Assembly (NCBI GenBank): GCA_030390025.1
Contig: CM059431.1
Span: 134,790,001 to 134,854,000 of the forward strand
From: Squalus acanthias
Lineage: Eukaryota
Reading direction: 5' to 3'
DNA: 64,000 nucleotides
Notes under the pieces: model-generated
Told to the model about the DNA's origin: nothing
What the model saw: the letters and a program-made list of their open reading frames with translations, nothing else
Databases searched by the model: none
Part shown: in pieces, positions 10,522-64,000 of the stretch
How the letters are laid out: the number at the start of each line of letters is the position of its first letter
Numbering within the stretch: the stretch's first letter is position 1
Made by a program: the position numbers and the translations under genes

Positions 10522-10705
10522 TAAAAACAGAAAATGCAGGAAACACTCAGGAGGTCAGACAGCATCTGTGGAGAGAGAAACAGTTAAGGTACATCGACCT
10601 GAAACGTTAACTCTGTTTCTCTCTCCACAGATGCTGCCTGATCTGCTGAGTGTTTCCAGCATTTCCTGTTTTTATTTCTTTCCACCATTCACAGTATTTT
10701 GCTTT
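10522..10705. mobile_element. Penelope-like terminal repeat remnant, two inverted copies forming a hairpin
   Basis: Matches the 45190-45300 terminus in both orientations. The hammerhead CUGANGA core is lost. Confidence 0.8.
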
Positions 10706-16939: not shown

Positions 16940-17039
16940 CTGGCTTTTATTGGGAAATTCTGACTAAGGTCTCGCATTAACTTCAAAGCATCATAAACAG
17001 GAGCAGAGACAATGCGAGCAGCTGCCTGGAAACTTAGAT
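16940..17039 (-). CDS. UGGT2: Host gene exon (D)LSFQAAARIVSAPVYDALKLMRDLSQNFPIKA(R)
   Basis: 100-nt exon bounded by ttttacag| and |gtactg. APVYD and SQNFPIKAR favour UGGT2 over UGGT1; paralog assignment is from memory. Confidence 0.9.
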
Positions 17040-26909: not shown

Positions 26910-27010
26910 CTTGAAGCTCCCACACTTTCAATGGTGCCATGTCATTAGTGCTTTCAATAAGATGTTTTCTTAATTCCTTCAGCTGGCCTTTTAAGTCAGG
27001 ATATAGGTGC
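26910..27010 (-). CDS. UGGT2: Host gene exon (K)HLYPDLKGQLKELRKHLIESTNDMAPLKVWELQ(D)
   Basis: 101-nt exon bounded by ttttaacag| and |gtattc. Phase 2 in, phase 1 out, joining both neighbouring exons in frame. Contains a PLKVWELQ UGGT motif. Confidence 0.9.
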
Positions 27011-27056
27011 CTGTTAAAATAACAGCGTAAAGGTTACACAGAGGGTGAGGCAGAGA

Positions 27057-29357
27057 GGGAAGGAGGAGGGTGTGGGGGATGGAGGAGGAGGAGGGTGTGG
27101 GAGTGGGAAGGAGGAGGGTGTGGGGGAGGGAGGAGGAGGAGGGTGTGGGAGTGGGAAGGAGGAGGGTGTGGGAGTGGGAAGGAGGAGGAGGGTGTGGGAG
27201 TGGGAAGGAGGAGGAGGGTGTGGGAGTGGGAAGGAGGAGGAGGGTGTGGGAGTGGGAAGGAGGAGGAGGGTGTGGGAGTGGGAAGGAGGAGGAGGGTGTG
27301 GGAGTGGGAAGGAGGAGGAGGGTGTGGGGGAGGGAAGGAGGAGGAGGGTGTGGGAGTGGGAAGGAGGAGGAGGGTGTGGGAGTGGGAAGGAGGAGGGTGT
27401 GGGAGTGGGAAGGAGGAGGGTGTGGGAGTGGGAAGGAGGAGGAGGGTGTGGGAGTGGGAAGGAGGAGGAGGGTGTGGGAGTGGGAAGGAGGAGGAGGGTG
27501 TGGGAGTGGGAAGGAGGAGGAGGGTGTGGGAGTGGGAAGGAGGAGGGTGTGGGAGTGGGAAGGAGGAGGGTGTGGGAGTGGGAAGGAGGAGGAGGGTGTG
27601 GGAGTGGGAAGGAGGAGGGTGTGGGAGTGGGAAGGAGGAGGAAGGTGTGGGAGTGGGAAGGAGGAGGGTGTGGGAGTGGGAAGGAGGAGGAGGTTGTGGG
27701 GTGGGAAGGAGGAGGAGGATGTGGGAGTGGGAAGGAGGAGGAGGATGTGGGAGTGGGAAGGAGGAGGAGGGTGTGGGGGAGGGAAGGAGGAGGAGGGTGT
27801 GGGAGTGGGAAGGAGGAGGAGGGTGTGGGAGTGGGAAGGAGGAGGAGGGTGTGGGAGTGGGAAGGAGGAGGAGGATGTGGGAGTGGGAAGGAGGAGGAGG
27901 GTGTGGGAGTGGGAAGGAGGAGGAGGGTGTGGGGGAGGGAAGGAGGAGGAGGTGTGGGGTGGGAAGGAGGAGGAGGTTGTGGGAGTGGGAAGGAGGAGGA
28001 GGTTGTGGGAGTGGGAAGGAGGAGGAGGGTGTGGGAGTGGGAAGGAGGAGGAGGGTGTGGGAGTGGGAAGGAGGAGGAGGATGTGGGAGTGGGAAGGAGG
28101 AGGATGTGGGGTGGGAAGGAGGAGGAGGTTGTGGGAGTGGGAAGGAGGAGGAGGGTGTGGGAGTGGGAAGGAGGAGGAGGGTGTGGGAGTGGGAAGGAGG
28201 AGGAGGATGTGGGAGTGGGAAGGAGGAGGAGGGTGTGGGAGTGGGAAGGAGGAGGAGGATGTGGGGTGGGAAGGAGGAGGAGGGTGTGGGGGAGGGAAGG
28301 AGGAGGAGGGTGTGGGAGTGGGAAGGAGGAGGAGGGTGTGGGAGTGGGAAGGAGGAGGAGGATGTGGGGTGGGAAGGAGGAGGAGGGTGTGGGAGTGGGA
28401 AGGAGGAGGAGGATGTGGGGTGGGAAGGAGGAGGAGGGTGTGGGGGAGGGAAGGAGGAGGAGGGTGTGGGGTGGGAAGGAGGAGGAGGGTGTGGGAGTGG
28501 GAGTGGGAAGGAGGAGGAGGGTGTGGGAGTGGGAAGGAGGAGGAGGGTGTGGGAGTGGGAAGGAGGAGGAGGGTGTGGGAGTGGGAAGGAGGAGGGTGTG
28601 GGAGTGGGAAGGAGGAGGGTGTGGGAGTGAGAAGGAGGAGGAGGGTGTGGGAGTGGGAAGGAGGAGGGTGTGGGAGTGGGAAGTAGGAGGGTGTGGGAGT
28701 GGGAAGGAGGAGGGTGTGGGAGTGGGAAGGAGGAGGAGGGTGTGGGAGTGGGAAGGAGGAGGAGGGTGTGGGAGTGGGAAGGAGGAGGGTGTGGGAGTGG
28801 GAAGGAGGAGGAGGATGTGGGGTGGGAAGGAGGAGGAGGGTGTGGGGGAGGGAAGGAGGAGGAGGGTGTGGGGTGGGAAGGAGGAGGAGGGTGTGGGAGT
28901 GGGAGTGGGAAGGAGGAGGAGGGTGTGGGAGTGGGAAGGAGGAGGAGGGTGTGGGAGTGGGAAGGAGGAGGGTGTGGGAGTGGGAAGGAGGAGGGTGTGT
29001 GAGTGGGAAGGAGGAGGAGGGTGTGGGAGTGGGAAGGAGGAGGAGGGTGTGGGAGTGGGAAGGAGGAGGAGGGTGTGGGAGTGGGAAGGAGGAGGGTGTG
29101 GGAGTGGGAAGGAGGAGGGTGTGGGAGTGGGAAGGAGGAGGAGGGTGTGGGAGTGGGAAGGAGGAGGGTGTGGGAGTGGGAAGTAGGAGGGTGTGGGAGT
29201 GGGAAGGAGGAGGGTGTGGGAGTGGGAAGGAGGAGGAGGGTGTGGGAGTGGGAAGGAGGAGGAGGGTGTGGGAGTGGGAAGGAGGAGGGTGTGGGAGTGG
29301 GAAGGAGGAGGAGGGTGTGGGAGTGGGAAGGAGGAGGAGGATGTGGAGGTGGGAGTG
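27057..29357. repeat. G-rich minisatellite, unit about (GGA)2-3 GGGTGTGGGAGTGGGAA, 23-26 bp
   Basis: Visible tandem array of about 2.3 kb with essentially no C on the + strand. Confidence 0.98.
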
Positions 29358-30068
29358 AGATTATAAAATGTATTAAGCTTTGTGAGCATTTCTTTTTGTA
29401 AAACTACTGCTGAAAGATATGATTATTAGATTCTGTAAGATTCAGCTAGGATTTTTGCAGAAGTAAGCATTAAAGCTGCGTCCTGTTATTACGAAGCTAT
29501 GTCATGGGTCAAGATGAGATAACAGCTACACAGTTGAACATGCAAAGACAGCATAAGAGAGACCCTTTGGATTAACCAAATATGGGACTGTTCACGAGAA
29601 GAGCAAATGTTCGAAACTCTCCTATTACCTCAGCTATGGATGTCACCTATGGTTGGATGAGACAAGTCAGTTGGTCTGGGCAAAGAGGGATATATGGCGA
29701 CTGTTTAGCCTGAGATACACAGATGTAGAGAGACACACTTGCAGGGGTTGATCCATGCTGGCCATCTGAGCCTAACACCCCTCAAGTATTCTAGCCTGAA
29801 GAGCGGATCAATGCTGGCGAATGCCTAATGCCCCTCTCAGCTAGAAGAACAACGGATTAGAAGAGAACAAGGAGACATCGCACGCTACTCTGTCCAGTGA
29901 CTGAATGGGTAATATCGTTCGCAGCTGTAAATTACTGTCATGAAATACTAGTCTTTTGGCTGTATTGATTTCTACTGTACCTACCGGTACCAATATGGAA
30001 TCATGTTCGAATCTTTAAGTTTGAGGTGAAACCCTCTTAAAAGGGTGTGGGAGCAGGAAGGAGGGAGG

Positions 30069-32714: not shown

Positions 32715-32787
32715 TTCAATTTCCCAAAAAGAATTCCCTGAACTTCATCGATGTCATCATCCTCTTCCAGCACAGTAACATTTGTAC
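32715..32787 (-). CDS. UGGT2: Host gene exon, UDP-glucose:glycoprotein glucosyltransferase (G)TNVTVLEEDDDIDEVQGILFGKL(K)
   Basis: 73-nt exon with ctag| acceptor and |gtaagt donor on the minus strand. Peptide resembles the UGGT DEVQGFLFGKL motif as recalled. Its phase-2 end matches the next exon. Confidence 0.85.
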
Positions 32788-33639: not shown

Positions 33640-36064
33640 CATTTGGTAAAGTTCCGCACAAAAGATTATTAGCAAAAATGGAATTGGAGGTAACATTATG
33701 ACGTGGGTTGATAATTGACTGGAGTAGGGATAAAGGGAATGCACCCTGACTGGCAGGAAGTGACAAGTGGTGTTCCCCAGGGATCAGTACTGGGGCCTCA
33801 GCTTTTCACCATATTTATTGTGGACTTGGATGAAGGAAGAGAGAATTATATATCCAAATTTGCAGATGACACTAAGTTGGGAGGCACAGTAAGTTGTGTA
33901 GATGGGAGTAGGAAGTTACAAAGGCACATAGACAAACTAAGTGAGTGGGCAAAACTGTGGGAGAGTTCCATGTGGGAAGTGTGAGGTCTTTGGATCCAAG
34001 AAAGACAGATCAGAGTATTTCCTTAATAGTGAGGGTTCTGTGGAGGAGCAAAGAGATTTAGGTGCCCGTGTATACAAATCACTAAAAGCTAGGGCACAGG
34101 TACAAAAGGTAATTAAAAAGGCTAATGGAATGCTGGCCTCATCTCAAGGGGGTTGGAATACAAAAGTGAGGAAGTTATGCTTCAGTTGTACAGAACCTTG
34201 GTCAAATCCCATCTGCAGTACTGCATTTAGTTTTGGGCAGGAAAGATATACCCGTATTTCTAGCGGGGCGGGGGGGGGGGGGGGCGGCGGGAGTGCAGAT
34301 TCACCAGAATGATAGCAGGACTGAAAGGATTAAATCATGAGAACAGGTATCATAAATTTGATTTGTATTTCCTGGAGTTCACAAGATTGAGGGGTAATCT
34401 AATTGAGGTCTTTAAAATGATAAAGGGATTCGATAGGGTAGGTACAAAGAAACTATTTCCTCTGGTGGAATCCAGAACAAGAGGAGTATGAGGAAAGAGC
34501 AGGGGAGTGGGACTAATTGGATAGCTCCTTCAAAGAGCTGGCACAGATACGATGGACCAAATGGCCTCCTTCTGTGCTGTATAATTCTATGATTCTATGA
34601 AGGTGACATAATGTTAAAATTAGGGCTAGGATATTTAGGAGTGAAATCATACACTTTTTCGTACAAAGGGTAGTAGAAATCTGGAATTCTCTCCCCCAAA
34701 AGGCTGTTGATGCCGAGTTAATAGAAATGTTCAAGACTGAGATTGATAGACTTTTTTTGGGGTAAAGGTATCAAGAGATATGGTGCAAAGGCAGGTAAAT
34801 GGAGCTGAGGTACAGATCATCCATTATCTAATAGAATGGTGACTGGAAACTAAATAGTACCAGGTATATGCTACTGAGTAGAGGGAAAGAAACAAGTTTG
34901 GGATTTATAAACAATTTAGAACAGGTTGCAGCAGTAAAGGCAGAGGCTCTGCGGATAAACAGAGGGGTTAGGGATAAAAGGCTTACGTTACATATAGGGG
35001 CCAATAACACAAGAAAACTATGAGAAATAGAAAGGAAGAAAAAAAAATGAGCAAGACTAAGGGAAAGTATGAAAAAAGACTGACAATCAGCATAAAGAGA
35101 AATAGCAAGGACTTTTATGAGCACACAAGTAAAAAGATAGATAAAGGGGTGGGACCATAGAGCCAAAATGGGCCATCTTGCACTTGAGAATGATGGAAAT
35201 GGTTCATAAGTATTATGTGTCAGTTTTTACATAGCAATGTGCATATGGGACTGTAGAAATATCGGAGGATGACATAGGAAACTCAATAGCTAAAAGGAAT
35301 GCAGATGTATATATGGATTTTCAGAAGACATTTGGCAACACACCACATAAGGGGCTTGATACAAAAAAATTAGGTATATGGTACTAAAGGATATGTAGCT
35401 TAATAGATAGAAATATGACTAGCACACAGAAAGCAAAGAGTAGGGGTAAACGGATTTTTTCAGATTAGTGGGATGTGGGTGGCGTTGTGCCCCAGGGATC
35501 CTGGGATGTCTATTGTTCACGATTTATACAAATGGGTTTGACATGGACACAAAGGGTATCATACTGAGGTTTGCTGATATTATCAAATTAGGGTACATGG
35601 CAAAAGGTAAGGAAAAATACAGGAGATTGCAGGAAGACACAGACAGTTTTGTGGAGTGAACACAATGTAGTTAAATGCAGAGAAATGTGAAGTAGTACAT
35701 TTTTTGAAAAAGAATAGTGAAAGGAAGATACAAAAGCAAAATACTGCGGATGCTGGAAATCTGAAATAAAAACAGAAAATGCTGGAAATACTCAGCAGGT
35801 CAGGCAGCATCTGCAGAGAGAAACAGAGTTAACGTTTCAGGTCGATGACCTTTCATCAGAATGGAAGGAAGATTCTTAACAGAGTGCAGGAACAGAGACG
35901 ACTAGGGCTGCAAATACATAGATCTTTAAAGGTGGGGTTACAGGTATAAAATGTCTACAAGCAAATAGCATTCTTCACTTTATAGATAATTGACATTAAA
36001 TGTAAAAGCAAGGAAATTATATTGAATCTGTACAAGACATTGGTTAAACCACATTTGGAGTATT
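33640..36064 (+). mobile_element. Cluster of degraded CR1 fragments, including a short CR1 tail inserted at about 34488-34598
   Basis: [10 protein letters not shown] and KFADDTK motifs, several 3' ends. Confidence 0.8.
35730..35862 (-). mobile_element. Solo Penelope-like terminal repeat containing a hammerhead motif (35827-35861)
   Basis: Minus strand reads ctgatga-a-aggtc-atc-gacct-gaaacgttaact. Flanked by duplicated aaggaagat. Confidence 0.8.
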
Positions 36065-43300: not shown

Positions 43301-45300
43301 ACAGCCCGCTTCTACCTCCTTCCCAAGATCCACAAACAGGACTGCCCTGGTAGACCCATCGTTACAGCCTGTTCTTGCCCCACGGAACTTATCTCTTCCT
43401 ATCTCGACTCTATTTTTTCTCCCCTTGTCCAGTCTCTTCCCACCTACATCTGCGACTCTTCCGACGCCCTCCGCCACTTTAACAGTTTCCAGTTTCCTGC
43501 CCGCAACTGCCTCCTTTTGACTATGGACGTACAATCCCTCTACACCTCCATCCCCCACCAGGATGGCCTGAGGGCGCTCCGCTTCTTCCTTGTACAGAGG
43601 CCCAACCAGTCCCCATCCACCACTACCCTCCTCCGCTTGGCTGAACTTGTTCTCACATTGAACAACTTCTCCTTTGACTCCACCCATTTCCTCCAAATCA
43701 AAGGTGTTGCTATGGGAACCCGCATGGGTCCTAGCTATGCCTGCCTTTTCGTGGGATTTGTGGAACACTCTTTGTTCCAGTCCTACTCGGGTCCCCTCCC
43801 TCACCTCTTTTTCCGGTACATTGATCACTGTATCGGTGCCGTTTCCTGCTCTCGCCCTGAACTAGATAATTTCATTCACTTTGCTTCCAATTTCCACCCT
43901 TCCCTCACCTTCACATGGTCCATCTCCGACTCTTCCCTTCCCTTCCTCAACTTCTCCGTCTCCATCTCTGGGGATAGGTTATTGACTAACATTCACTACA
44001 AGCCCACTGACTCCCACAGCTACCTGGACTACACTTCCTCCCACCCCGCCTGCTGTAAGGACTCTATTCCATTCTCCCAGTTTCTCCGTTTCCGCCGCAT
44101 CTGCTCTGACGATGCCACCTTCCATACCAGTGCTTCCGACATGTCTTCCTTTTTCCTCAACCGAGGATTCCCCTCTACAGTGGTTGACACGGCCCTCGAG
44201 CGTGTCCGTTCTATCTCCCGCACTTCTGCCCTCACCACTGCCCCTCCCTCCCGGAACCACAATAGAGTTCCCCTTGTCCTCACCTTTCACCCCACCAGCC
44301 TCCATATTAACGTATCATCCTCCGCCATTTCCGCCACCTCCAGCGTGATCCCACCACCAAATGCATCTTCCCCTCACCTCCCCTTTCAGCATTCTGTAGG
44401 GACCGCTCCCTCCGCGACACCCTAGTCCACTCCTCTATCGCCCCCAACACCCCTTCCCCTTCGCCCGGCACCTTCCCGTGCAAGCGCAGGAGATGCAACA
44501 CATGCCCTTATACCTCCCCACTTCCCACTGTCCAGGGCCCCAAACACCCCTTCCAGGTGAAACAGCAATTTACTTGTACTTCTCGCAATTTAGTATACTG
44601 TATTCGCTGCTCACGATGTGGTCTCCTCTACATTGGGGAGACCAAACGCAGATTGGGTGACCGCTTTGCGGAACACCTCCGTTCAGTCTGTAAGGGGGAC
44701 CCCGAGCTTCCAGTCGCCTGTCACTTTAATTCACTGCTCCACTCCCACTCAGACCTCACCATCCTCGGCCTCTTGCATTGTTCCATGGAAGCGCAGCGTA
44801 AGCTCAAGGAACAGCACCTCATCTTTCGAGCCTTCTGGACTCAACATAGAGTTCAACAATTTCAGATCATAACATACATATATAATATTTTATCCACACT
44901 TTTGTTCTGTTCTTCTCTCCCACAGGGCAGCTGTCTTCCATTCTGCCAGCGCAATTTACACTTCATCTAGAGCCATCCTTTGTTTCTTAACCTGTCCCAT
45001 TACCATCCCCTTTTGCCTTGAATATCTCTTAATGTCTCTCAATGTCTCTTAATCTCTCCTGCCTTCCAGCCTATCAAAGGCCTTCCCTTTTGTTCTTTCA
45101 TCCTCTCCCCATTTCCCAGCCACTACACAAGCTTAAAAATCTGTTACATTTCCTGCTTTTTTCCAGTTCTGACGAAAGGTCATCGACCTGAAACGTTAAC
45201 TCTGTTTCTCTCTTCACAGATGCTGCCTGACCTGCTGAGTATTTCCAGCATTTTCTGTTTTTATTTCAGATTTCCAGCAACTGCAGTATTTTCTTTTTGC
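43301..45300 (+). mobile_element. Penelope-like retroelement, 5'-truncated, RT + GIY-YIG endonuclease
   Basis: FYLLPKIHK, DVQSLYTSIP, GVAMGT.MGP, RYIDH (second catalytic D mutated), VYCIRCSRCGLLYIGETKRRL..RF.EH. Frameshift near 44305. Terminal repeat carries a hammerhead. Confidence 0.93.
45165..45201 (+). ncRNA. Minimal type I hammerhead ribozyme
   Basis: agtt-CUGACGA-a-aggtc/atc/gacct-GAAA-cGUU-aact. Helix I agtt/aact, helix II 5 bp, palindromic ACGU helix III. Confidence 0.8.
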
Positions 45301-45334
45301 AGAAGAAGTGGGTATGGTTCTTAATTAATACTTT

Positions 45335-51385: not shown

Positions 51386-52090
51386 GTACTCTAATTGGCA
51401 GGTTGTGACTAGCGGTGTCCCACAAGGATCTGTGTTGGGAACTCAACTATTCACCGTATTTATTTACAACTTAGATGATGGGATAGAGAGCCACATATCC
51501 AAGTTATCTGATGACACAAAGATAGGCTGCATTGTAAGCAGTGTAGATGGAAGCATAAAATTACAAAGAGATATTAATAGATTAAGCAAACGGGCAAAAC
51601 TGTGACAAAATAGATTTCAATGTAGGCAAATATGAAGTCATCCACTTTGGACCTAAAATGGATAGAACAGGATACTTTCTAAATGGTGAAAAGCTAAAAA
51701 CAGTGGCGGTCCAAAGAGACTTGGGGGTCCAGGTACATAGATCATTAAATTATCATGGACAGAAAATAATCAAAAGGCCTTTACATCTAGAGGACTAGAA
51801 TAGAAGGGGGTAGATGTTATGCTGCAGCTATACAAAGTCCTGGTTAGACCACACCTGGAGAACTGTAAGCAGTTCTGGGCACCACACCTTAGGAAAGATA
51901 TATTGGCCTTGGAAGGAGTGCAACGTAGATTTACCAGAACGATACCTGGACTCCAAGGGTTAAATTACAAGGAGAGATTACACAAACTAGGACAAAAGCA
52001 AAATACTGCGGATGCTGGAAATCTGAAATAAAAACAGAAAATGCTGGAAATACTCAGCAGGTCAGGCAGTATCTGTGGAGAGAGAAACAG

Positions 52091-52127
52091 AGTTAACGTT
52101 TCAGATCGATGACCCTTCGTCAGAACT
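52091..52127 (-). ncRNA. Minimal type I hammerhead ribozyme
   Basis: Minus strand reads agtt-ctgacga-agggtc-atc-gatct-gaaa-cgtt-aact. Confidence 0.75.
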
Positions 52128-52904
52128 GGCTAACACCCTTCTTCCAATCTCACCCCCTGCCGTGTTTTGACTATCCCCTCTGACCTTCCCCTCTCTGACC
52201 CCGAACGATCAGTCCTTAGCAAAGGCCTGAGCTTCATCCCCTTACGCCCCCATCTCAATGAATTTCGAGCCCGTTTTCAGAATTCTCGTTCTACCTGGAC
52301 CCCTCCCTCTGGCCTCTTAACCTCTCTAGATCTTTTCATTGCAAACTGCCAGCGTGACATCGGCCGTCTCAATTTCTCTGCTCCCCTCACTCACTCTAAC
52401 CTACCTCCCACTGAACTTGCAGCACTCCATTCTCTCAGATCCAACCCCAAAATTGTCATTAAACCTGCTGACAAGGGTGGTGCTGTTGTTGTTTGGCGAA
52501 CCAACCTCTACCTAGCGGAGGCTGAACGCCAACTCTCCGACACCTCCTCCTGGACCACGACCCCACTACCGAACATCAAGCCACCGTTTCCAAGACCGTC
52601 ACTGACCTCATCTCCTCTGGAGATCTTCCCTCCACGGCCGCCAACCTCATAATTCCCCAACCCCGCATAGCCCTCTTCGACCTCCTTCCCAAGATCCACA
52701 AACAGGACTGCCCCAGTAGACCCATCGTTTCAGCCTGTTCTTGCCCCACGGAACTTATCTCTTCCTATCTCGACTCTATTTTATCTCCCCTTGTCCAGTC
52801 TCTTCCCACCTACATCCACGACTCTTCCGACGCCCTCCGTCACTTTAACAGTTTCCAGTTTCCTGGCCCCCAGTTCTGACGAAGGGTCATCGACCTGAAA
52901 CGTT

Positions 52905-53651
52905 GGGCCAAAAACTGATCCCGCTGTGCGAGAGTACGCACTGCGTACTCTCGCGTATTCTCTCTCCAATTGCCGGTTTTCTGCATGCCCTGCGCATGCG
53001 CTGAAAACCGGCACTTGGTCTTTGGAAAAGGGGGCGGTTCCTCGGTGCATCGCGTGCGCGCTACAGGCTGCGCGCACACTGTGCACTTCATGCTTTGGAC
53101 GCGCAGGTAAGGACGGAAGATTTTAGAAATGGAAAAAGGAGGAGTAAGACCCACTTTTAACAAGGTAAGTAGTGAATTAAGTATTTTTTTGAATTTTTTT
53201 TAACAGGTATATCTTTTTTAGAGACTTTAAAGACAGGTAAGTTTATTTTTATAACTTTTTAAAAGATTTTAAATTTTTTCAAAAATTTAATTTTTTATTT
53301 AAAATGGTTAATTTATTTAACTATACTTATTTTATTAATGTGATGGGTTTTTTTTAAATTTAATTGCGGTTTAGCTGTTATTTTGGGGGGGTGTAAGATT
53401 CATAGCTTTCACAGCACGTATGTGAAACTTATGAATGGAAGATGGTGTGCTGCCTGCCATTGGCTCTAACTGAGTCACCTGATCCCACAGCTCGCACGAA
53501 TTCACTACGCCGGTGGGATACGCAAGCACTGCCCAGCTGATGTCTGGAACATCAAGTTCGTGCGAGCTGGATCTGAAAAAGCCAACGCGGAGTGAGAGAT
53601 CGCGCCTGCTCCTTACCCCCGCGGGAACAGAGCGAGATTAATTTCTGGGCC
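52905..53651. mobile_element. MITE with 3-bp TSD (Harbinger-type) inserted into a hammerhead motif
   Basis: Imperfect 21-bp TIRs gggccaaaaactgatcccgct / agcgagattaatttctgggcc, TSD GTT. Confidence 0.85.
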
Positions 53652-54169
53652 GTTAACTCTGTTTCTCTCTCCACAGATGCTGCCTGACCTGCTGAGTATT
53701 TCCAGCATTTTCTGTTTTTATTACACAAACTAGGGTTGTATTCCCTGTAATTTAGAAGGTTAAGGGGTGATTTGATCGAAGTTTTCAAGATATTAAGGGG
53801 AACTGATAGGGTAGATAGAGAGAAACTATTTCCGCTGGTTGGGGAGTCCAGGACTAGGGGACATAGACTAAAAATTATAGTCAGGCCTTTCAGGAGTGAA
53901 GTGAGGAAACACTTCTACACACAAAGGGTGATAGAAGTTTGGAACTCTCTTCCGCAAACGGCAGTTGATGCTGGGTTAATTGTTAATTTTAATTCTGAGA
54001 TTGATAGATTTCTGTTAACCAAAGGTATTAAGGGATATGGGGCAAAGGTGGGTATATGAAGTTAGGTCATAGATCAGCCATAATCTCATTGAATGGCAGA
54101 ACAGACTCAAGGGGCTAAATGGCCTACTCCTGTTCCTATGCTCCTATGTGTTCCTAAGACTGACACAAA

Positions 54170-54863: not shown

Positions 54864-55303
54864 ATAGTAATTATTCAACAAGTCTGCTATTTCCTTATTT
54901 TGATTTGCCATATCTATTTTTAAAAGGCCCACATTACTACACTTTGGGGTAGAAATTAGGTCACGCCCCATTTGGGGCGCAAATATCGTCCGAGCGCAAA
55001 TATTAGCGCCTGGCGCTAATTATCGGCACTGACAGGAAACTTCACTTTTACCGCCCCGGGAGGTGAGTGGAGCGCTAAAGCAGGCGCTGCACACCTGTCT
55101 TAAGGCGCAAAGGCTTAGGAGTGAGGCGCTACCTCAGCGCACGAGCGCAGCGCAGCTGCTGCCAGTTAGCGAGGGAACACAGACACACTGGCGCCGGACA
55201 CTTCTTAAAACGGGGGGGGGCCACTTGCTCCCCAGCCACACCCTGCTCATTGCAGCCTTGAATCTCAGCCTGGAGAGACCTGTAATCCATTTTGCTGCCA
55301 AGC

Positions 55304-57127
55304 ATGGAGAGGGTGAGAGAACGCGCTCATCGCTTCACCGAGCGGGCCTTGGATGCTCTGGTTGACGCAGTGGAGCGCAGACGATGCATGCTGTTCCCGG
55401 AGAGTGGCAGGAGGCCTTTGCCACGCGAGTTCAGAAGAGTGTGGAGGGAGGTGGCTCAGAGCATCTCCTCCAGGAGCATGGTGCCCAGGACCCATGTTCA
55501 GTGCCGCAAAAAGTTCAACGACCTCACTCGGGTCGTCAGGGTGAGTGGCTTTTTCTCAATACCTCTCCATCCCTCCATCTCAACCTCACTCTATGGCCAG
55601 AGGGTCTTAAAACCCCAATGCACAACACTCATCCAACACCTATGGCTCTTTCATCAAACACACACACACATTCCACACTTTGCATACAGTAAGGGCTATT
55701 CACCTATGGGAGGCACATCAGGCAAGACCATGGCTGCATATTGTAAGGGATATTCACCTATGGGAGGCACATCAGGCAAGACCATGGCTGTATATTTACT
55801 CAGATGCTGTCCTTTTTCTTGCAGGCTAAGCTGGCTCATAATCGGAGACAGCAGCAACGGACGGGTGGAGGGCGGCTTCAGCTGCAACCCCTCAGCGATC
55901 TGGAGGAGCGCGTCCACAGGATTGTGGCAAGCCGGGTGATCGGTCCCGTCGCCACTGGGGACGCCGACCCCGTTGTGGACAGCAATGGTAAGGTCATCAC
56001 CTTTTTGTCCTCTGTCCTTCCACTTGTCCCTCACAATACCAGCCTTTGACACTTTCAATCCAACTTGCTAACTCGCTGCACTTATTCCTCCCTTACTGCC
56101 ACCCTGTCCTCACGCTAAAGCCACTCTTGTACCTCCCTGCTTTCAGATGGTGATTCACCAGCTGAGGAGACGGGCCCTGAAGCTGCCACTGGGAGTGATG
56201 CTGCAGCTGAGGAGGAAGAGGAAGCCGGAGCATCAGTGCCACCCTCTCCCGAGGAAGCCCATGCCCACACTGGGAACACGCCTTCCCCAGAGGGGAGCAG
56301 GGGGGAAGGGGCTGATGATGGTGAAGCTCCAGGACCCAGCGGGCTGCAGCAACGCCATGGTGGGGGGGAGGGAAGAACGGGAGCCTTCTCCCCAGAGGGA
56401 GAGTATGCCAGACACTCCTACTGCAATGGACGCAGAGGAGGAGCGGCTGATTGCAGAAATGAACAGCCAGGCGGTGGGCATGCACACTGAGCTCATGGGT
56501 GCAGTGGGAAGGGTGCCCGAATGCATTGAGGCACTGGCAAGGAGTGTGGAGCACTTCGCTGTAGCACAGGCGGATGCCACACTAAAGCTTAGTGCTGCAA
56601 TTCAGTCACTGGCTGCCAGGAACCCATCTGAGACTGCTCTCATGCAGACTCAGATTGAGGCCACGCGAGCACTGACTGCTGCCATCCTCGATGGTTCGTG
56701 CACATGTCCCCGGGGCTGTCACCGCGCCGCAGCAGGCCAGCAATCTATTCTCCGGCAAATTGCTCCGGATGCTGAAGTGCTGCCCCGTGGGAGTGCCAGT
56801 GTGTCGGGCGAGCAGAGAGTTGCTGTCCTCTCTCACGATGACAGCATCCCTGCTGCCAACACTGTCACTTCTCCACTGCACTTGCCACCGCCTGTAGGAC
56901 AGACTGCTGCCGCCCATGCAGAGTTGGTGCAGTCTGCAGCCGGGCCCTCCAGGCCCAGAACTGGTCGAGGCCGTCCTTCAGGGGCATCTGCAGTGTCAGG
57001 GTCTGACGAGCAGCAGCCTTCCACCAGCCTTGCTGCAGCCACTGAGGTCCCATTACGGAGGAGCAGTAGGGTTAGAAGGGGGGAAGTGCGCAAGGGAAGG
57101 AGATCACCCTCGAAGGGCAAAAAGTAG
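55304..57127 (+). CDS. Harbinger Myb/SANT-like protein, exons 55304-55540, 55825-55987, 56147-57127, with one frameshift near the G7 run at 56362-56368
   Basis: HRFTERALDALV...WREVA...RTHVQCRKKFNDL|AKLAHNRR...RTGGG. Canonical splice sites in the same phases as the 11043 gene. Confidence 0.85.
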
Positions 57128-57421: not shown

Positions 57422-58582
57422 CTAGAAGCGGCTTGCTATTAGTCGTTGACGGACGGCCCTTGCAGTTTGACCATTGTGGGCCGCCCTCCTGCCTTGGTGC
57501 TGCTGATGATCATCGTCCTCGTCCTGTTCCTCCTCTTCCTCCTCCTCCTCTGGTGGTGCTACAAGGCCTGGTGGCATTGGCTGGGTCCTGAGGATTGCCA
57601 TGTTGTGCAACATGCAGCACACGACTACGAAGTTCGAAACTTGCTCAGGCGAGTACTGCAGGGCTCCTCCGGAATGGTCCAGACAGCGGAACCGTTGTTT
57701 CAGCACGCCGATTGTGCGCTCAATAATGTTCCTGGTTGCTTGATGGCTTTCCTGGTACCGCAGCTCAGCAGGGGTGTTTGGCGCACGGAGCGGTGTCATC
57801 AGCCAGGTGCTCAATGCGTACCCCTTGTCCCCCAGAAGCCAACCAACTGGCTGATGCGGTGCCTCGAAAAGTTCTGCCACAGTAGTCTGGCACAGGATGA
57901 AAGCATCGTGGCAGCTGCCCGGATAGTGGGCATTGACAGCGAGAATCACCTGTCTGTGGTCACAGACCAACTGCACATTCAAGGAATGGAACCCCTTTCT
58001 GTTCCTGAATTCCTCTGCATTCTCTCGCGGAGCACGCAAAGCCACATGCGTGCAGTCAATGGCGCCCTGCACCATGGGGAAGCCCGCTACCCTCGCAAAG
58101 CCCATAGCACGGTCATGCTGCTTGTCTGGGGTCATAGGGAAAGAGATGAAGTCTCGTCTCCTTCTGAAGAGGGCATTGGTGACCTGCCGGATGCAGCGAT
58201 GCACCGCAAACTGGGAGATATTGGCGAGGTCCCCAACAGCAGCTTGGAATGAGCCAGTGGCGTAGAAGTTCAAAGCCACTGTGACCTTCACTGCCACCGA
58301 CAGAGACGTCCTGGACCTCAGCTGAGGCTGCAGATCTGGCTGCAGCAGGTGGCAGAGCTCAGTGACCACCTCCTTGCTGAATCGCAGCCTTCGCAAACAC
58401 AGCTCCTCGGACATATGGATGTAGGAGAGCTGTTCACGATATACCCTGGGAGGGTAAGCTCTCCTGTACATGCGCCTGATGGCCCTCCTCCGTCTGGCCA
58501 TCATTGCCACTCTCTGTCTGCGTCTCACTATCCTCCGATTCAGCTGGAGCAGGACGACGCCCCCAATCATTGCAGCCCCCAT
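57422..58582 (-). CDS. Harbinger (HARBI1-like) DDE transposase, 386 aa, intact ORF
   Basis: [42 protein letters not shown] motifs. No stops. Confidence 0.95.
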   Translation of the reverse strand: MGAAMIGGVVLLQLNRRIVRRRQRVAMMARRRRAIRRMYRRAYPPRVYREQLSYIHMSEELCLRRLRFSKEVVTELCHLLQPDLQPQLRSRTSLSVAVKVTVALNFYATGSFQAAVGDLANISQFAVHRCIRQVTNALFRRRRDFISFPMTPDKQHDRAMGFARVAGFPMVQGAIDCTHVALRAPRENAEEFRNRKGFHSLNVQLVCDHRQVILAVNAHYPGSCHDAFILCQTTVAELFEAPHQPVGWLLGDKGYALSTWLMTPLRAPNTPAELRYQESHQATRNIIERTIGVLKQRFRCLDHSGGALQYSPEQVSNFVVVCCMLHNMAILRTQPMPPGLVAPPEEEEEEEEQDEDDDHQQHQGRRAAHNGQTARAVRQRLIASRF

Positions 58583-59186
58583 ATTCTCTTTGCCAGAAAA
58601 GTAATGAGGTACAGCAACTAAAGTAGCAACAAAGTTAGGATGAACTAGGCCAAACTACCTCACAAAGCGTTGAGTCAATGTAGAAGTCTCTCTCTCTCTC
58701 TCTCCGAATCTCTCTCTCTCTCTCAGAACGAGTGGTGCATAAATGTCGACCACAGAAAAAGATAGGAAGAGGCCCCCTTTAAATAGCGCCCCCCCCAGCC
58801 CCACACCGATTGATAACGTTCCAGTCTTCCGGTCGTTGGAAGCGCCAGGCGGTAAGGCAGGGGGTGCCACTCAATTTCCGCTCCGGGGCGCCCCAAGGGC
58901 GTTGCACCATGGAATGACGTCACAATCTGCGCGCGCAGGTGGTCGCAGCGGTAAGTTTTAGCGCCGCCGCACAATCTCAAGTTAAGTTCTCGAGCGGCGC
59001 AAACAGCGCTGCGCCCGGGCGTTAGCGGCTTAACGCCCCATTAGCGCCCTCTTAAGGCGCTAACGGGAGGCGCAACCAAGTGAATTTTTACCCCTTTGTC
59101 TTCTAATATAACTGTAAAACCTTTTTGTGTTAATCCCTCGCAAGTTTCTTTTCGTGTTCCTTTTTGCAACACTTACTAGTCCAGAA

Positions 59187-59360: not shown

Positions 59361-59890
59361 AATTTGCGGTCAGCAGCGAAGCAAAGGCGTTCGCCGCTGG
59401 CCCCGAAGTACGCTTCGCACAAGGATCTCGCGATTTCTGTGTCGAGAACTTCGGGTTTTCCAACTTTCAATTCAAATCAACGGAGGTTAGTGAGGATCCC
59501 CTTGTGAATGCTGTGACGTCAACAAGCTGTCTAGGCAGCCAATCAAAATGCAGAATTCTCACAGACAGTGAACAAGGAGGTTAGTAAGCTCTTAAAATTT
59601 TAACTTTTTAAAAATGTTACCGAGAGAGCAAAACAAAGATTGGGGCTCTCACATGGGGAAAAGGCAAATCTGAAATAAAGATGAACAAACTTTCAAAAAA
59701 AGTAAACAACATTTTTTAAGTTTCTTAAAAATTCTAATTTTTATTAAAATCGATAAATTTCACACTGCACAAAATTGAAATTAGTTTTCCAGGCCCTTAA
59801 CATTTGTTTAGCAGTCAATACGCTGTTAAAACCCCAGTTACAACTAATCCCTTTGGGTCTAACTTTTAGTGGGGAATTTAACAGCGTACA

Positions 59891-61864
59891 GTGGAGGAAA
59901 AGGAAGCGTATGTAAGGATGAGAAAACAAGGTTCAGTTGGGTCGATTGAGGGGTACAAGGTAGCAAGGAATGAGCTAAAAAAAGAGCTTAGGAGAGCTAG
60001 GAGGGGGCATGAGAAGTCCTTGGCGGGTCGGATCAAGAAAAACCCCAAGGCTTTTTACTCTTATGTGAGAAATAAAAGAATGACCAGGGTGAGGGTAGGG
60101 CCGGTCAAGGACAGTAGTGGGAACTTGTGCATGGAGTCAGAAGAGATAGGAGAGGTGATGAATGAATACTTTTCGTCAGTGTTCACCGAGGAGAGGGGCC
60201 ATGTTCTTGAGGATGAGAGTGTGATAAAGGTGGATAGGCTGGAGGTGGTAGATGTTCTGAGGGAAGATGTTTTAGCAATTTTGAAGAACCTGAGGGTCGA
60301 TAAGTCCCCTGGGCCAGATGGGATATATCCTAGGATTCCTTGGGAGGCAAGGGAGGAGATTGCAGAGCCTCTGGCTTTGATCTTTGGGTCCTCACTGTCC
60401 ACGGGGATGGTGCCAGAGGACTGGAGAGTGGCGAATGTTGTTCCTCTCTTCAAGAAAGGAAATAGGAATGACCCTGGTAATTATAGGCCGGTTAGTCTTA
60501 CTTCGGTGGTTGGTAAGATAATGGAAAAGGTCCTGAGGGATAGGATTTATGACCATTTGGAAAGGGGCAACTTAATCAGGGATAGTCAACACGGATTCGT
60601 GAAGGGTAAGTCTTGCCTAACAAATTTGATTGAATTCTTTGAGGAGGTAACTAAGTGTGTAGATGAAGGTAGAGCAGTTGATGTCGTATATATGGATTTT
60701 AGTAAGGCGTTTGATAAGGTTCCCCATGGTCGTCTCATGAAGAAAGTAAGGAGTTGTGGGATAGAGGGAAATTTGGCCGATTGGATAAGTAACTGGCTAT
60801 CTCATAGAAGGCAGAGGGTGGTGGTGGATGGAACATTTTCGGACTGGACACCAGTTACCAGCGGTGTGCCACAGGGGTCGGTGCTGGGTCCTCTGCTGTT
60901 TGTGATTTTTATCAATGACTTGGAGGAGGGGACTGAAGGGTGGATCAGTAAATTTGCTGATGACACCAAGATTGGTGGAGTAGTGGATGAGGTGGAGGGC
61001 AGTTGTAGGCTGCAAAGAGACATTGATAGGATGCAGAGCTGGGCCGAAAATTGGCAGATGGAATTTAACCCTGATAAGTGCGAGGTGATTCATTTTGGTA
61101 GGGCAAATTTGAATAAGGATTACAGGGTCAACGGCAGGGTTCTGAGGAACGTGGAGGAGCAGAGGGATCTGGGGGTTCATATCCACAGATCTCTGAAGGT
61201 TGCCACTCAAGTGGATAGAGCAGTAAAGAAGGCCTATGGTGTGTTGGCGTTTATTAACAGAGGGTTTGAGTTTAAGAACCGTGAGGTTATGCTGCAACTC
61301 TACAGGACCTTGGTGAGACCACATTTGGAATATTGTGTGCAGTTCTGGTCACCTCACTATAGGAAGGATGTGGAAGCATTGGAAAGAGTGCAAAGGAGAT
61401 TTACCAGGATGCTGCCTGGTTTGGGGGGGAGGTCTTATGAGGAAAGATTGAGGGAGTTGGGGCTTTTCTCTTTAGAGCGGAGGAGGATGAGAGGCGACTT
61501 AATAGAGGTTTATAAGATGATGAGGGGGATAGATAGAGTGGATGTTCAGAGACTATTTCCTCGGGTAGAGGCAGCTGTTACAAGGGGGCATAACTATAAG
61601 GTGCATGGGGGGAGATATAGAAGGGATGTCCGAGGTAGATTCTTTACTCAGAGAGTGGTTGGGGTGTGGAATGGACTGCCTGCTGTGATAGTGGAGTCGG
61701 ACACTTTAGGAACTTTCAAGCGGTGATTGGATAAGCACATGGAGCACACCAGAGTGATAGGGAGTGTGATAGCTTGATCTTGGTCTCGGACAATGCTCGG
61801 CACAACATCGAGGGCCGAAGGGCCTGTACTGTGCTGTACTGTTCTATGTATCTATGTATCTATG
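59891..61864 (+). mobile_element. Young 5'-truncated CR1 with uninterrupted 611-codon ORF2 segment
   Basis: Complete RT (FADD) with no stops or frameshifts over 59891-61726, (tatctatg)n tail. Confidence 0.95.
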
Positions 61865-62383: not shown

Positions 62384-64000
62384 GGGGGCGATTTTCTGAT
62401 GCCGGAGGAGGCGGGTTTGGAGTCGGGAATGGCGGGAAAATTAGAATCAATGAGGTGAGGTTCGAAACCCGACTCCAAGCCGCCTCCGTGGGATTTTGCC
62501 GGTGCCGGTTTTGGAGGTCGGGAAACGCTCCCGCCTCCAGCTGGCCATTGCGTTAATTAACGTCTGCAAATGCTTGTTAAGGGCCTCTCTAAGCCTATTT
62601 TGAGAGGCCCTCGTGAATTTCCCATCATTTTGGCGTGCTTCACGCAACTTCTGAACCACACCAGGTAAACCTGACGGGTTGACTCGTGGGTGGCCTCCTC
62701 ACTGCTGCAGGTCTAACAAGACATCGTTCACTGCAGCAAGGATTACTTGCAGGGGCCAGACCTTGGCTTTAAAAGGTCTCTGAGCACTTTTAGAAGGCCT
62801 TTCGAAGTCAGAGGTGCTACAGCTTGAATCAATCAACTGTGGGACCTCCTGTGAAGACCCTCGCCCCGCTTACAATGAGCGCTTCCCCAGAGGAGGCATC
62901 TGCAAGCAGAATGGGAAACACTCATTTCCTTTCACATTGGACCTCAGATGAGGATGAGGACCATCCAGGGCAGCAGCAGAACCAGGCAGCTCAGCAGCAA
63001 CATCAGCTGCAGCCCCAACATCCTGCTCAGCCACCTGATGCTGCACAGGGCAGAAGACGCCAGCGCATCAAGACACCTCGCCGCAGGAGATACCCCCGAC
63101 AGAGGGTTTACAGACAAAGGATGAGCTGCCTCAACATGAGTGAGCAGCAGTGCCAAAGGAGGTTGAGACTTTCGCGTGAGGTAGTCCGAGAGATCTGCGG
63201 CCTGCTGCAGCAAGACCTGGTGCCCAGAGGAACGGGTGGACACGCCTTACCAGTGGCTGTCAAAGTCACCACCGCACTCAACTTCTTTGCCTCAGGCTCC
63301 TTCCAGGGATCATCAGCAGACATCAGCGCCATCTCCCAGTCAGCCGCCCACAGGTGCATCACCCAGGTTACCGATGCCCTTTTTGCTAAGTCCCACAATT
63401 ACATCCAGTTCACAAGGGATCAAGCAAGTGTAACCGCCCGTTCGGTTGGATTCGCAAATATGGCAGGCATGCCAATGGTGCAGGGAGTCATAGACTGCAC
63501 ACATGTGGCCCTTAGGGCGCCCCATCACAACCCAGCTATCTTTGTCAACCGAAAGGGCTTCCACTCCCTCAATGTACAGCTGCATGTTTGCGCCATGTAC
63601 CCTGGCAGTTGCCATGATTCTTTCATCCTGCGGCACTCTAATGCTCCTCCGCTTTTCAATCCACCAAACCAACTTAATGGATGGCTCCTTGGTGACAAAG
63701 GCTATCCCCTGAAGAAGTGGCTAATGATGCTGATCAGGAGGCCAGCTGACAAGGCTGAAGAGCGCTACAACGCCAGCCATACTTCGACCAGGTCCATCAC
63801 AGAGCAGACAATTGGGTTGCTGAAGATGCGCTTCCATTGCCTTGACCAATCAGGTGGAGCCCTGCAGTATACACCATTCAGGGTCTCCAGAATGGTTGTG
63901 GTCTGCTGTACACTGCACAACATCGCACAGCGTCGTGGCTTACAGCTTCCTGATGAGCAAGCGGCTCAGTTCCAGCCCTCCTCAAATGAGGATGAGGATG
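62384..64000 (+). mobile_element. Harbinger element running off the window end
   Basis: TTA followed by gggggcgatttt terminus. Subterminal region resembles 13700-14036. Confidence 0.9.
62911..64000 (+). CDS. Harbinger transposase, open to window end, with a 9-aa in-frame deletion
   Basis: Manual translation [17 protein letters not shown]...GVIDCTH...[18 protein letters not shown]...GDKGY...RSITEQTIG. Absent from the ORF track, presumably because no stop lies in the window. Confidence 0.88.

Follow-up and report, generated by a model that had tools for sequence, protein, structure and literature searches.

The 64,000 nucleotides of Squalus acanthias DNA analysed here (the window) lie within a gene that is read from the minus strand. 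Three in-phase minus-strand exons, of 73 nt at 32715–32787, 101 nt at 26910–27010 and 100 nt at 16940–17039, encode 90 residues that share 84–96% identity with the UGGT2 group of sharks and 74–78% with UGGT1. Pfam recognised one of the three as UGGT-type, the 100-nt exon with its Thioredoxin_13 match (E 1.5e-7); the 101-nt exon shows UGGT protein similarity, and searching the PDB with two UGGT exons brought no useful match. The best match, P0121, carries the source label UGGT1, yet it is 85–90% identical to UGGT2-labelled proteins and 62–63% to UGGT1. Like P0121, the shark protein P0175 is labelled UGGT1 while grouping by identity with UGGT2 (85–90%) rather than with UGGT1 (about 62%). As a tblastn search of the window with 11 UGGT proteins turned up no further exon, and in particular none between 32788 and 64000, the intron lying 5' of the 73-nt exon runs past position 64000, exceeds 31 kb and holds all four of the hammerhead cores discussed below, two in the sense of UGGT2 and two antisense to it. 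This bears out the preliminary description in two respects, as it had placed the minus-strand copies in the sense of the UGGT2 pre-mRNA and had both of them share one intron transcript. Elsewhere in the gene, a purine-rich tandem array of about 2.4 kb with units of 23–26 bp (26990–29400) begins at the acceptor side of the 27010 exon.

Several mobile elements populate the window. An open LINE ORF2 fragment of 614 residues (59882–61726, plus strand), presumably CR1-like by its motifs, has at least eight older copies elsewhere in the window, and an open ORF of 410 residues (57422–58654, minus strand) encodes a Harbinger-type transposase (DDE_Tnp_4, E 1.1e-37). The latter possibly belongs to a young element with pieces in 55286–57127, where ORF pieces resemble what we take to be the Myb/SANT partner gene of this transposase.

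The element of main concern here is a 5'-truncated Penelope-like element (PLE) at 43303–45299 on the plus strand, comprising RT, Cys linker, GIY-YIG domain to about 44850, a 3' UTR and a repeat head at 45163–45299. Its hammerhead at 45165 follows the RT and GIY-YIG ORF by about 320 nt, which is the pLTR location. The Pfam matches to RT and GIY-YIG are both below the curated cut-offs (E 5.5e-4 for GIY-YIG); the ORF has 1091 relatives, and among the 120 listed those from sharks and rays are 59–73% identical. In the translation of 44311–44970, the C-terminal GIY-YIG domain is accompanied by a CX4CXXC linker and C-C-H-H residues, in agreement with the CX2-5CxxC/CCHH pattern of Neptune elements. 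These features are attributed to the Neptune and Nematis clades and denied to Penelope/Poseidon in the account of Craig et al. (2021, PMC8557442). Since Nematis shares the linker, the clade call depends on a related locus, L007, whose RT is 53% identical and whose hammerhead equals, letter for letter, the Acropora digitifera Neptune motif in Fig. S3 of Cervera and de la Pena (2014, PMC4209133); by this link the shark element would be a Neptune-type PLE. The copy itself is dead, with a frameshift near 44311 and YIDH where at least 90% of the aligned relatives show YIDD. The RT of this element is also contained in three gene models from rays and skates that bear the names of host genes (P0056, P0065 and P0105), which may reflect exonisation or annotation artefacts.

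How well do the motifs agree with hammerhead ribozymes? Scanning the 64-kb window for the pattern CTGAYGA-N5-30-GAAAC returned four matches, at 35834–35859(−), 45169–45194(+), 52098–52123(−) and 52876–52901(+), where 0.42 were expected and none of 100 shuffles reached four. A structural descriptor that includes the helices found the identical four cores and nothing in 30 shuffled windows. Rfam, searched with the window to E 5, gave ten matches, none of them to a hammerhead, and the copies fall outside its curated hammerhead covariance model; the model search recommended in the preliminary description was thus successful with a structural descriptor and fruitless with Rfam. All four copies share the box CUGA(C/U)GA, one bulged A, a helix II of 5 bp with its loop of 3 nt, the GAAA box, CG as the spacer and the U-U that belongs to a GUU triplet, so that the letters first reported are present at all four sites, and in combinations beyond chance. 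In the numbering that we take to be conventional for hammerheads, the core C3 U4 G5 A6 N7 G8 A9 ... G12 A13 A14 A15.1 ... U16.1 H17 of the minimal hammerhead (min-HHR) is complete in four of five copies, the fifth being a relic without the first box. The bulged base between positions 9 and 10.1 is likewise in place, as is a helix I in the 3–5 bp range, which measures 4 bp in two of the four copies and is broken in the other two (2 bp at 35863, interrupted at 52872). A palindromic 15.2–16.2 spacer takes the place of helix III, being CG in all four copies and in all 12 related motifs described below. Where the preliminary description had spoken of a palindromic helix III, the palindrome stands, but the monomer has no helix III at all. 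The one departure is the pair 10.1–11.1, which is A-U in two window copies and G·U in the other two instead of G10.1-C11.1. That pair is a consensus (>80%) rather than universal, as rows with A-U from Latimeria (2) and with G·U from Xenopus (1) already appear in the published alignment (PMC4209133); it is thus a tendency of the class and not a defining feature, and we dismissed its absence as a novelty of the shark family. The fold and the position behind the RT and GIY-YIG ORF support the identification, proposed at the outset, of these motifs as Penelope-like minimal type I hammerheads, which would belong to the dimer-dependent class and reside in the pLTR.

The individual copies differ in their state of preservation. 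A complete motif at 45165–45201 (plus strand, antisense to UGGT2) has a helix I of 4 bp, the first core box at 45169–45175, the bulged A, GAAA and the CG spacer; its 5-bp helix II contains A10.1-U11.1, and the cut site follows 45197. The second complete motif, at 52091–52127 (minus strand, sense to UGGT2), has two G·U pairs in helix II and is the inverted 5' repeat of a composite PLE insertion (51992–53719), in which an inverted head, an ORF fragment and a direct head are framed by a 15-bp target duplication (51977–51991 and 53720–53734). The N-terminal ORF fragment (52130–52869, plus strand) matches residues 71–344 of P0002, is frameshifted and is joined directly to the repeat head. This direct head carries the interrupted motif at 52872–52904 (plus strand, antisense to UGGT2), which extends from the 5' strand of helix I through the GTT triplet; the 3' strand of helix I resumes at 53652, and the remainder of the repeat (53652–53719, plus strand) ends at the equivalent of about 45265, in the short, tail-less class of 3' ends. 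The intervening element of 747 bp (52905–53651) is a later arrival, inserted at the cleavage triplet; because of its imperfect 16-bp terminal inverted repeats and its 3-bp GTT duplication, it is probably of the Harbinger type. At 35827–35863 (minus strand, sense to UGGT2), core and helix II are intact, while helix I is reduced to 2 bp with the loss of one base; this motif belongs to a solo repeat head of 135 bp (35730–35864, minus strand) that lies inside an older LINE between the arms of a 9-bp target duplication (35721–35729 and 35865–35873). A relic head at 10586–10705 (plus strand) starts after CUGAYGA and cannot be a ribozyme, and its inverted arm (10522–10583, minus strand) consists only of sequence downstream of the cut site.

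This parsing agrees with the first account on the 4-bp helix I at 45165(+) and 52091(−) and its interruption at 52872(+), on the intact core and truncated helix I at 35827(−), and on the relic near 10590, if it is kept in mind that its minus-strand positions are low coordinates (52091 is our copy 52127, and 35827 our copy 35863). Its count of four copies is right for the cores and wrong for the insertions: as 52091(−) and 52872(+) are bounded by one 15-bp target duplication, four independent insertions are ruled out and the four cores derive from three events. Two of the hammerhead insertions interrupt LINE copies, each with a clear duplication, and a LINE copy likewise surrounds the 43303 element; throughout the 64-kb window, all copies are dispersed or inverted, with no direct tandem. 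The anatomy matches that described for PLE insertions in PMC8557442 and PMC11167929: the target duplications measure 15 and 9 bp, a 5' copy is inverted, and the 3' ends differ by about 34 nt. Loose 3' ends of contigs cluster at 45265/6, 45279, 45292 and 45299; in an Anolis PLE, an optional tail of 30–40 bp has been attributed to two internal start sites of the RT (Frangieh et al., 2024, PMC11167929).

The fold recurs in related elements of invertebrates, where its helices appear to covary, although the test is partly circular. In 11 of 80 metagenome loci with related RTs, the descriptor found 12 motifs, as opposed to none in 20 shuffles, while the remaining 69 loci were without a match; among the 30 loci that include the endonuclease end, only eight have one. 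The CG spacer, a bulged A and G10.1-C11.1 are present in all 12 motifs without being demanded by the descriptor. Seven of the motifs follow the endonuclease on its own strand, the remainder being upstream or inverted. An alignment of 14 sequences (three copies from the window plus 11 of the 12 related motifs) has 94.6% of its cells paired, against 21–42% for slid controls, in a set that was itself chosen by a helix-demanding descriptor. Seven of the eight pairs change on both sides across the 14 sequences, a count that by itself was also reached by 92 of 500 shuffles. An exact-pattern scan of the metagenome contigs detected no shark-type heads, and among 69 candidate viral contigs there was no relative.

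The repeat family is clearly very abundant, and occurs in more than one organism. Contigs matching the 261 bp of 45060–45320 number 86,321 in run X3, 102,461 in X1 and 4,558 in X15 (contigs only guessed to derive from RNA), figures that are not copy numbers; the raw-read run X21 contributed 11 reads on this interval, too few to inform. Among the variants listed, those frequent within the motif are N7 C>T (18–24%), 10.1 A>G (22–32%), loop A>T (11–19%) and H17 U>C (2–9%). All of these positions tolerate substitution, as would fit selection acting on the master elements. The frequencies are depth-weighted over contigs, with some differences uncounted in X3, and core conservation can be read from them at CpG positions. 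There, G8>A reaches 6.6, 2.3 and 8.5% in the three runs, alongside 5.9, 2.3 and 9.3% for the loop C, and CpG decay of the spacer C and G amounts to 2–10% among the variants listed. That catalytic G8 and the spacer decay like the loop C fits an absence of selection after insertion. The preliminary description had made an excess of conservation in the core over its flanks a test of its reading, and at the readable CpG positions this test comes out negative. Nor is the core protected from decay in the manner of domesticated hammerheads, given the decay of G8 across the family and the helix damage in the sense copies. The window copies thus seem to decay neutrally, as these frequencies suggest.

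Could the motif have ceased to be a ribozyme in the shark lineage, being kept as a promoter, splice or protein-binding sequence with a hairpin as its working fold? The pair G10.1-C11.1, universal in the 12 invertebrate relatives, has been lost in all four window copies, and the MFE fold pairs the hammerhead core with the cut-site strand. Moreover, a branch-point-like TTAAC, a pyrimidine tract and an AG overlap the cut site, and hammerhead mutants of the Anolis element were unaffected in their insertion in vitro according to PMC11167929. Against this, A-U and G·U at 10.1–11.1 as well as GUU triplets occur in the published alignment (PMC4209133), the frequent variants within the motif, among those listed, fall on positions that a hammerhead tolerates (N7, A/G at 10.1, the loop, U/C at H17), and the acceptor AG is lost in 18–29% of contig depth. 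We therefore regard a non-ribozyme role as very unlikely.

The acceptor-like sequence merits a description of its own. TTAAC, pyrimidine tract and AG are found at 45195–45219(+), 52097–52073(−) and 35833–35811(−), with a second acceptor-like site 50 nt further on. At the strictest crude filter, the site after the cut is among 11 of 4090 YAG sites, and four of these 11 belong to this repeat. By a crude count, the sites in the sense copies are stronger than the three real UGGT2 acceptors, so they could act as cryptic splice sites. The branch-point-like motif of this seemingly strong 3' splice site shares bases with the cut site, so that an RNA might undergo either splicing or self-cleavage, but not both. 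A conserved splice acceptor behind the cut site was nevertheless rejected, in view of the loss of its AG noted above and because the 11 related loci show no evident counterpart.

Would the two sense copies in the UGGT2 intron pair and cleave at GUU, as the preliminary description had suggested? Both are sense and lie in the same intron, conserved intronic hammerheads do exist in amniotes (PMC6155905), and one of the two dimer sites could keep a 4-bp helix I, with 52127 as the enzyme strand and 35863 as the substrate. The copies are 16.3 kb apart, though, at an extra loop cost of about 6.8 kcal/mol by rough extrapolation, helix I of 35863 is down to 2 bp and helix II of 52127 contains its two G·U pairs. 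The active dimer of 52127 and 35863 is predicted at −2.8 kcal/mol, compared with −13.8 kcal/mol for two separate hairpins. Nearest-neighbour energies omit the contacts of the core and penalise an intact homodimer as well (−9.7 versus −18.2), so that they serve only to rank the copies and were discarded as proof that the family is inactive. Competition with antisense copies, at an advantage of about 60 kcal/mol, is the stronger argument. An antisense copy (of 52870–52904), situated 740 nt upstream of 52127 and made earlier, forms a duplex with its core at a predicted −61.2 kcal/mol. When the 871-nt stretch is folded, helices I and II of 52127 receive a predicted probability of 0.000, while 32 of its first 33 positions pair at a probability of at least 0.98. 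Between both sense copies lies the antisense of 45163–45299, which is predicted to pair with either at about −230 kcal/mol. In published experiments, minimal dimers cleave weakly even when adjacent, monomers do not cleave at all, and one of nine Xenopus retrozyme dimers was cleaved. G8, finally, is unprotected across the family. Dispersed repeats acting as long-range cutters of pre-mRNA would be a striking finding, were such pairing to take place; the evidence here leaves the suggestion unsupported, and we consider it extremely improbable.

A lone intronic copy might instead be cut occasionally in trans, by other repeat-head RNAs or with the help of the element's protein, which would amount to low-level noise in the pre-mRNA. 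The extreme abundance of the family speaks for such events, as does the finding that an Anolis PLE hammerhead was cleaved only in the presence of PLE protein (Frangieh et al., 2024, PMC11167929); yet the same study describes no RNA-seq reads ending at the Anolis cut site. In the shark intron, antisense partners are available in cis and the monomer is predicted to favour an inactive hairpin: all monomers prefer a hairpin of core and cut-site strand, by −9.1 against −5.9 kcal/mol in the case of 45165. Orientation bias, too, is absent in UGGT2, with three repeat heads sense and three antisense, numbers too few to weigh much. Cleavage in trans thus appears quite unlikely.

What, then, would be the place of the hammerhead in the element's own RNA? 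Three heads from two independent insertions start at 45163–45164, just 5' of helix I, and among 30 joint ends (from 15 of 176 joints listed) seven are in 45162–45167, a six-base window picked post hoc, whereas the cut site has none. A splice junction was rejected as the cause of this shared 5' boundary, as spliced RNA would not keep CCAG. Alternatively, the element RNA could start at helix I, the hammerhead then occupying nucleotides 1–37 of a capped transcript, whose cleavage would remove the cap with a 33-nt piece. Initiators follow the consensus YYANWYY, and a match to it, with a background frequency of 1.2% of positions, would make the first base of helix I the +1 nucleotide; at that register, an initiator-like match is found in none of the 12 relatives. 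In Drosophila virilis, the reported transcription start is well 5' of the hammerhead; by 46 bp it precedes an intron that extends up to helix I. We regard a start at helix I as unlikely. If true, cleavage would withdraw the RNA both from translation and from the production of full heads, and uncut RNA would be the form that is inserted.

Taken together, the motifs are in all likelihood the pLTR hammerheads of an abundant Neptune-type PLE family of cartilaginous fish, present here as dead copies of uncut RNA that are presumably inert in the UGGT2 pre-mRNA. By analogy with published relatives, two motifs in an active tandem element would swap strands, such that the palindromic A-CG-U of each pairs to form helix III; cleavage would then follow GUU in the swapped dimer, probably helped by the element's own protein. 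The copies in the window would be dead products of insertion, namely a 5'-truncated element, a solo head of 135 bp, a composite inverted and direct insertion, and a relic. That the sequence 5' of the cut site is kept indicates that they were made from uncut RNA; they would have inserted into old LINEs in the introns of UGGT2 and decayed neutrally thereafter. In the UGGT2 pre-mRNA, an inactive hairpin or antisense pairing is their most likely state, and they would be spliced out without cleavage. For so abundant a repeat, an intronic position alone is uninformative. For the question of what PLE hammerheads do, the shark family is a cheap test bed, as it combines huge copy numbers for statistics on orientation bias and decay with a 5' boundary that is sharp and placed at helix I.

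How does the shark family compare with known systems? The literature consulted, which includes PMC6765202 and PMC2377424, yielded no shark-specific description; Repbase and most subscription papers were outside its scope, and the supplements of the retrozyme preprint cited below may list the family. In the alignment of Fig. S3 in Cervera and de la Pena (2014, PMC4209133), none of the 56 rows is from a cartilaginous fish. The closest likeness is to the min-HHRs of metazoan PLE pLTRs described there, which have the same CUGANGA core, single bulged base, helix II, GAAA, palindromic two-base spacer for helix III, UH triplet, short helix I and U-rich 5' flank. They also occupy the same site 3' of the RT-EN ORF, mostly as dispersed single copies with an inverted second copy nearby. 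Unlike the usual G-C of this class, the 10.1–11.1 pair of the shark family is A-U or G·U, next to a helix II of 5 bp and a loop of 3 nt. With Neptune-clade PLEs (PMC8557442; Acropora digitifera Neptune in Table S1 of PMC4209133) the element shares GIY-YIG, the CX4CXXC linker and C-C-H-H, the connection being made through L007. The Anolis carolinensis element PAc (PMC11167929) likewise has a pLTR hammerhead, an optional tail of 30–40 bp, to which the shark 3' ends at about 45265 and 45299 would be equivalent, and insertions from uncut RNA. PAc, however, is a Penelope/Poseidon element without the Cys linker and has its start codon in stem II, whereas the first ATG of the shark head, a putative start, comes 22 nt after the cut site. 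Non-LTR retrozymes (bioRxiv 10.64898/2026.07.22.740005) employ the same type I hammerhead from PLE pLTRs, with monomer copies common and the one chondrichthyan sampled positive; they are built of tandem units with a hammerhead in each, while the window copies are dispersed or inverted and thus no retrozymes. Amniote intronic hammerheads, as in RECK and others, are also type I, intronic and ultimately derived from retroelements (PMC6155905). These are kept at one locus across species, in contrast to the shark copies, which are repeats in neutral decay. The shark family is thus an addition to the class described in 2014, an ordinary representative of an already known kind of motif.
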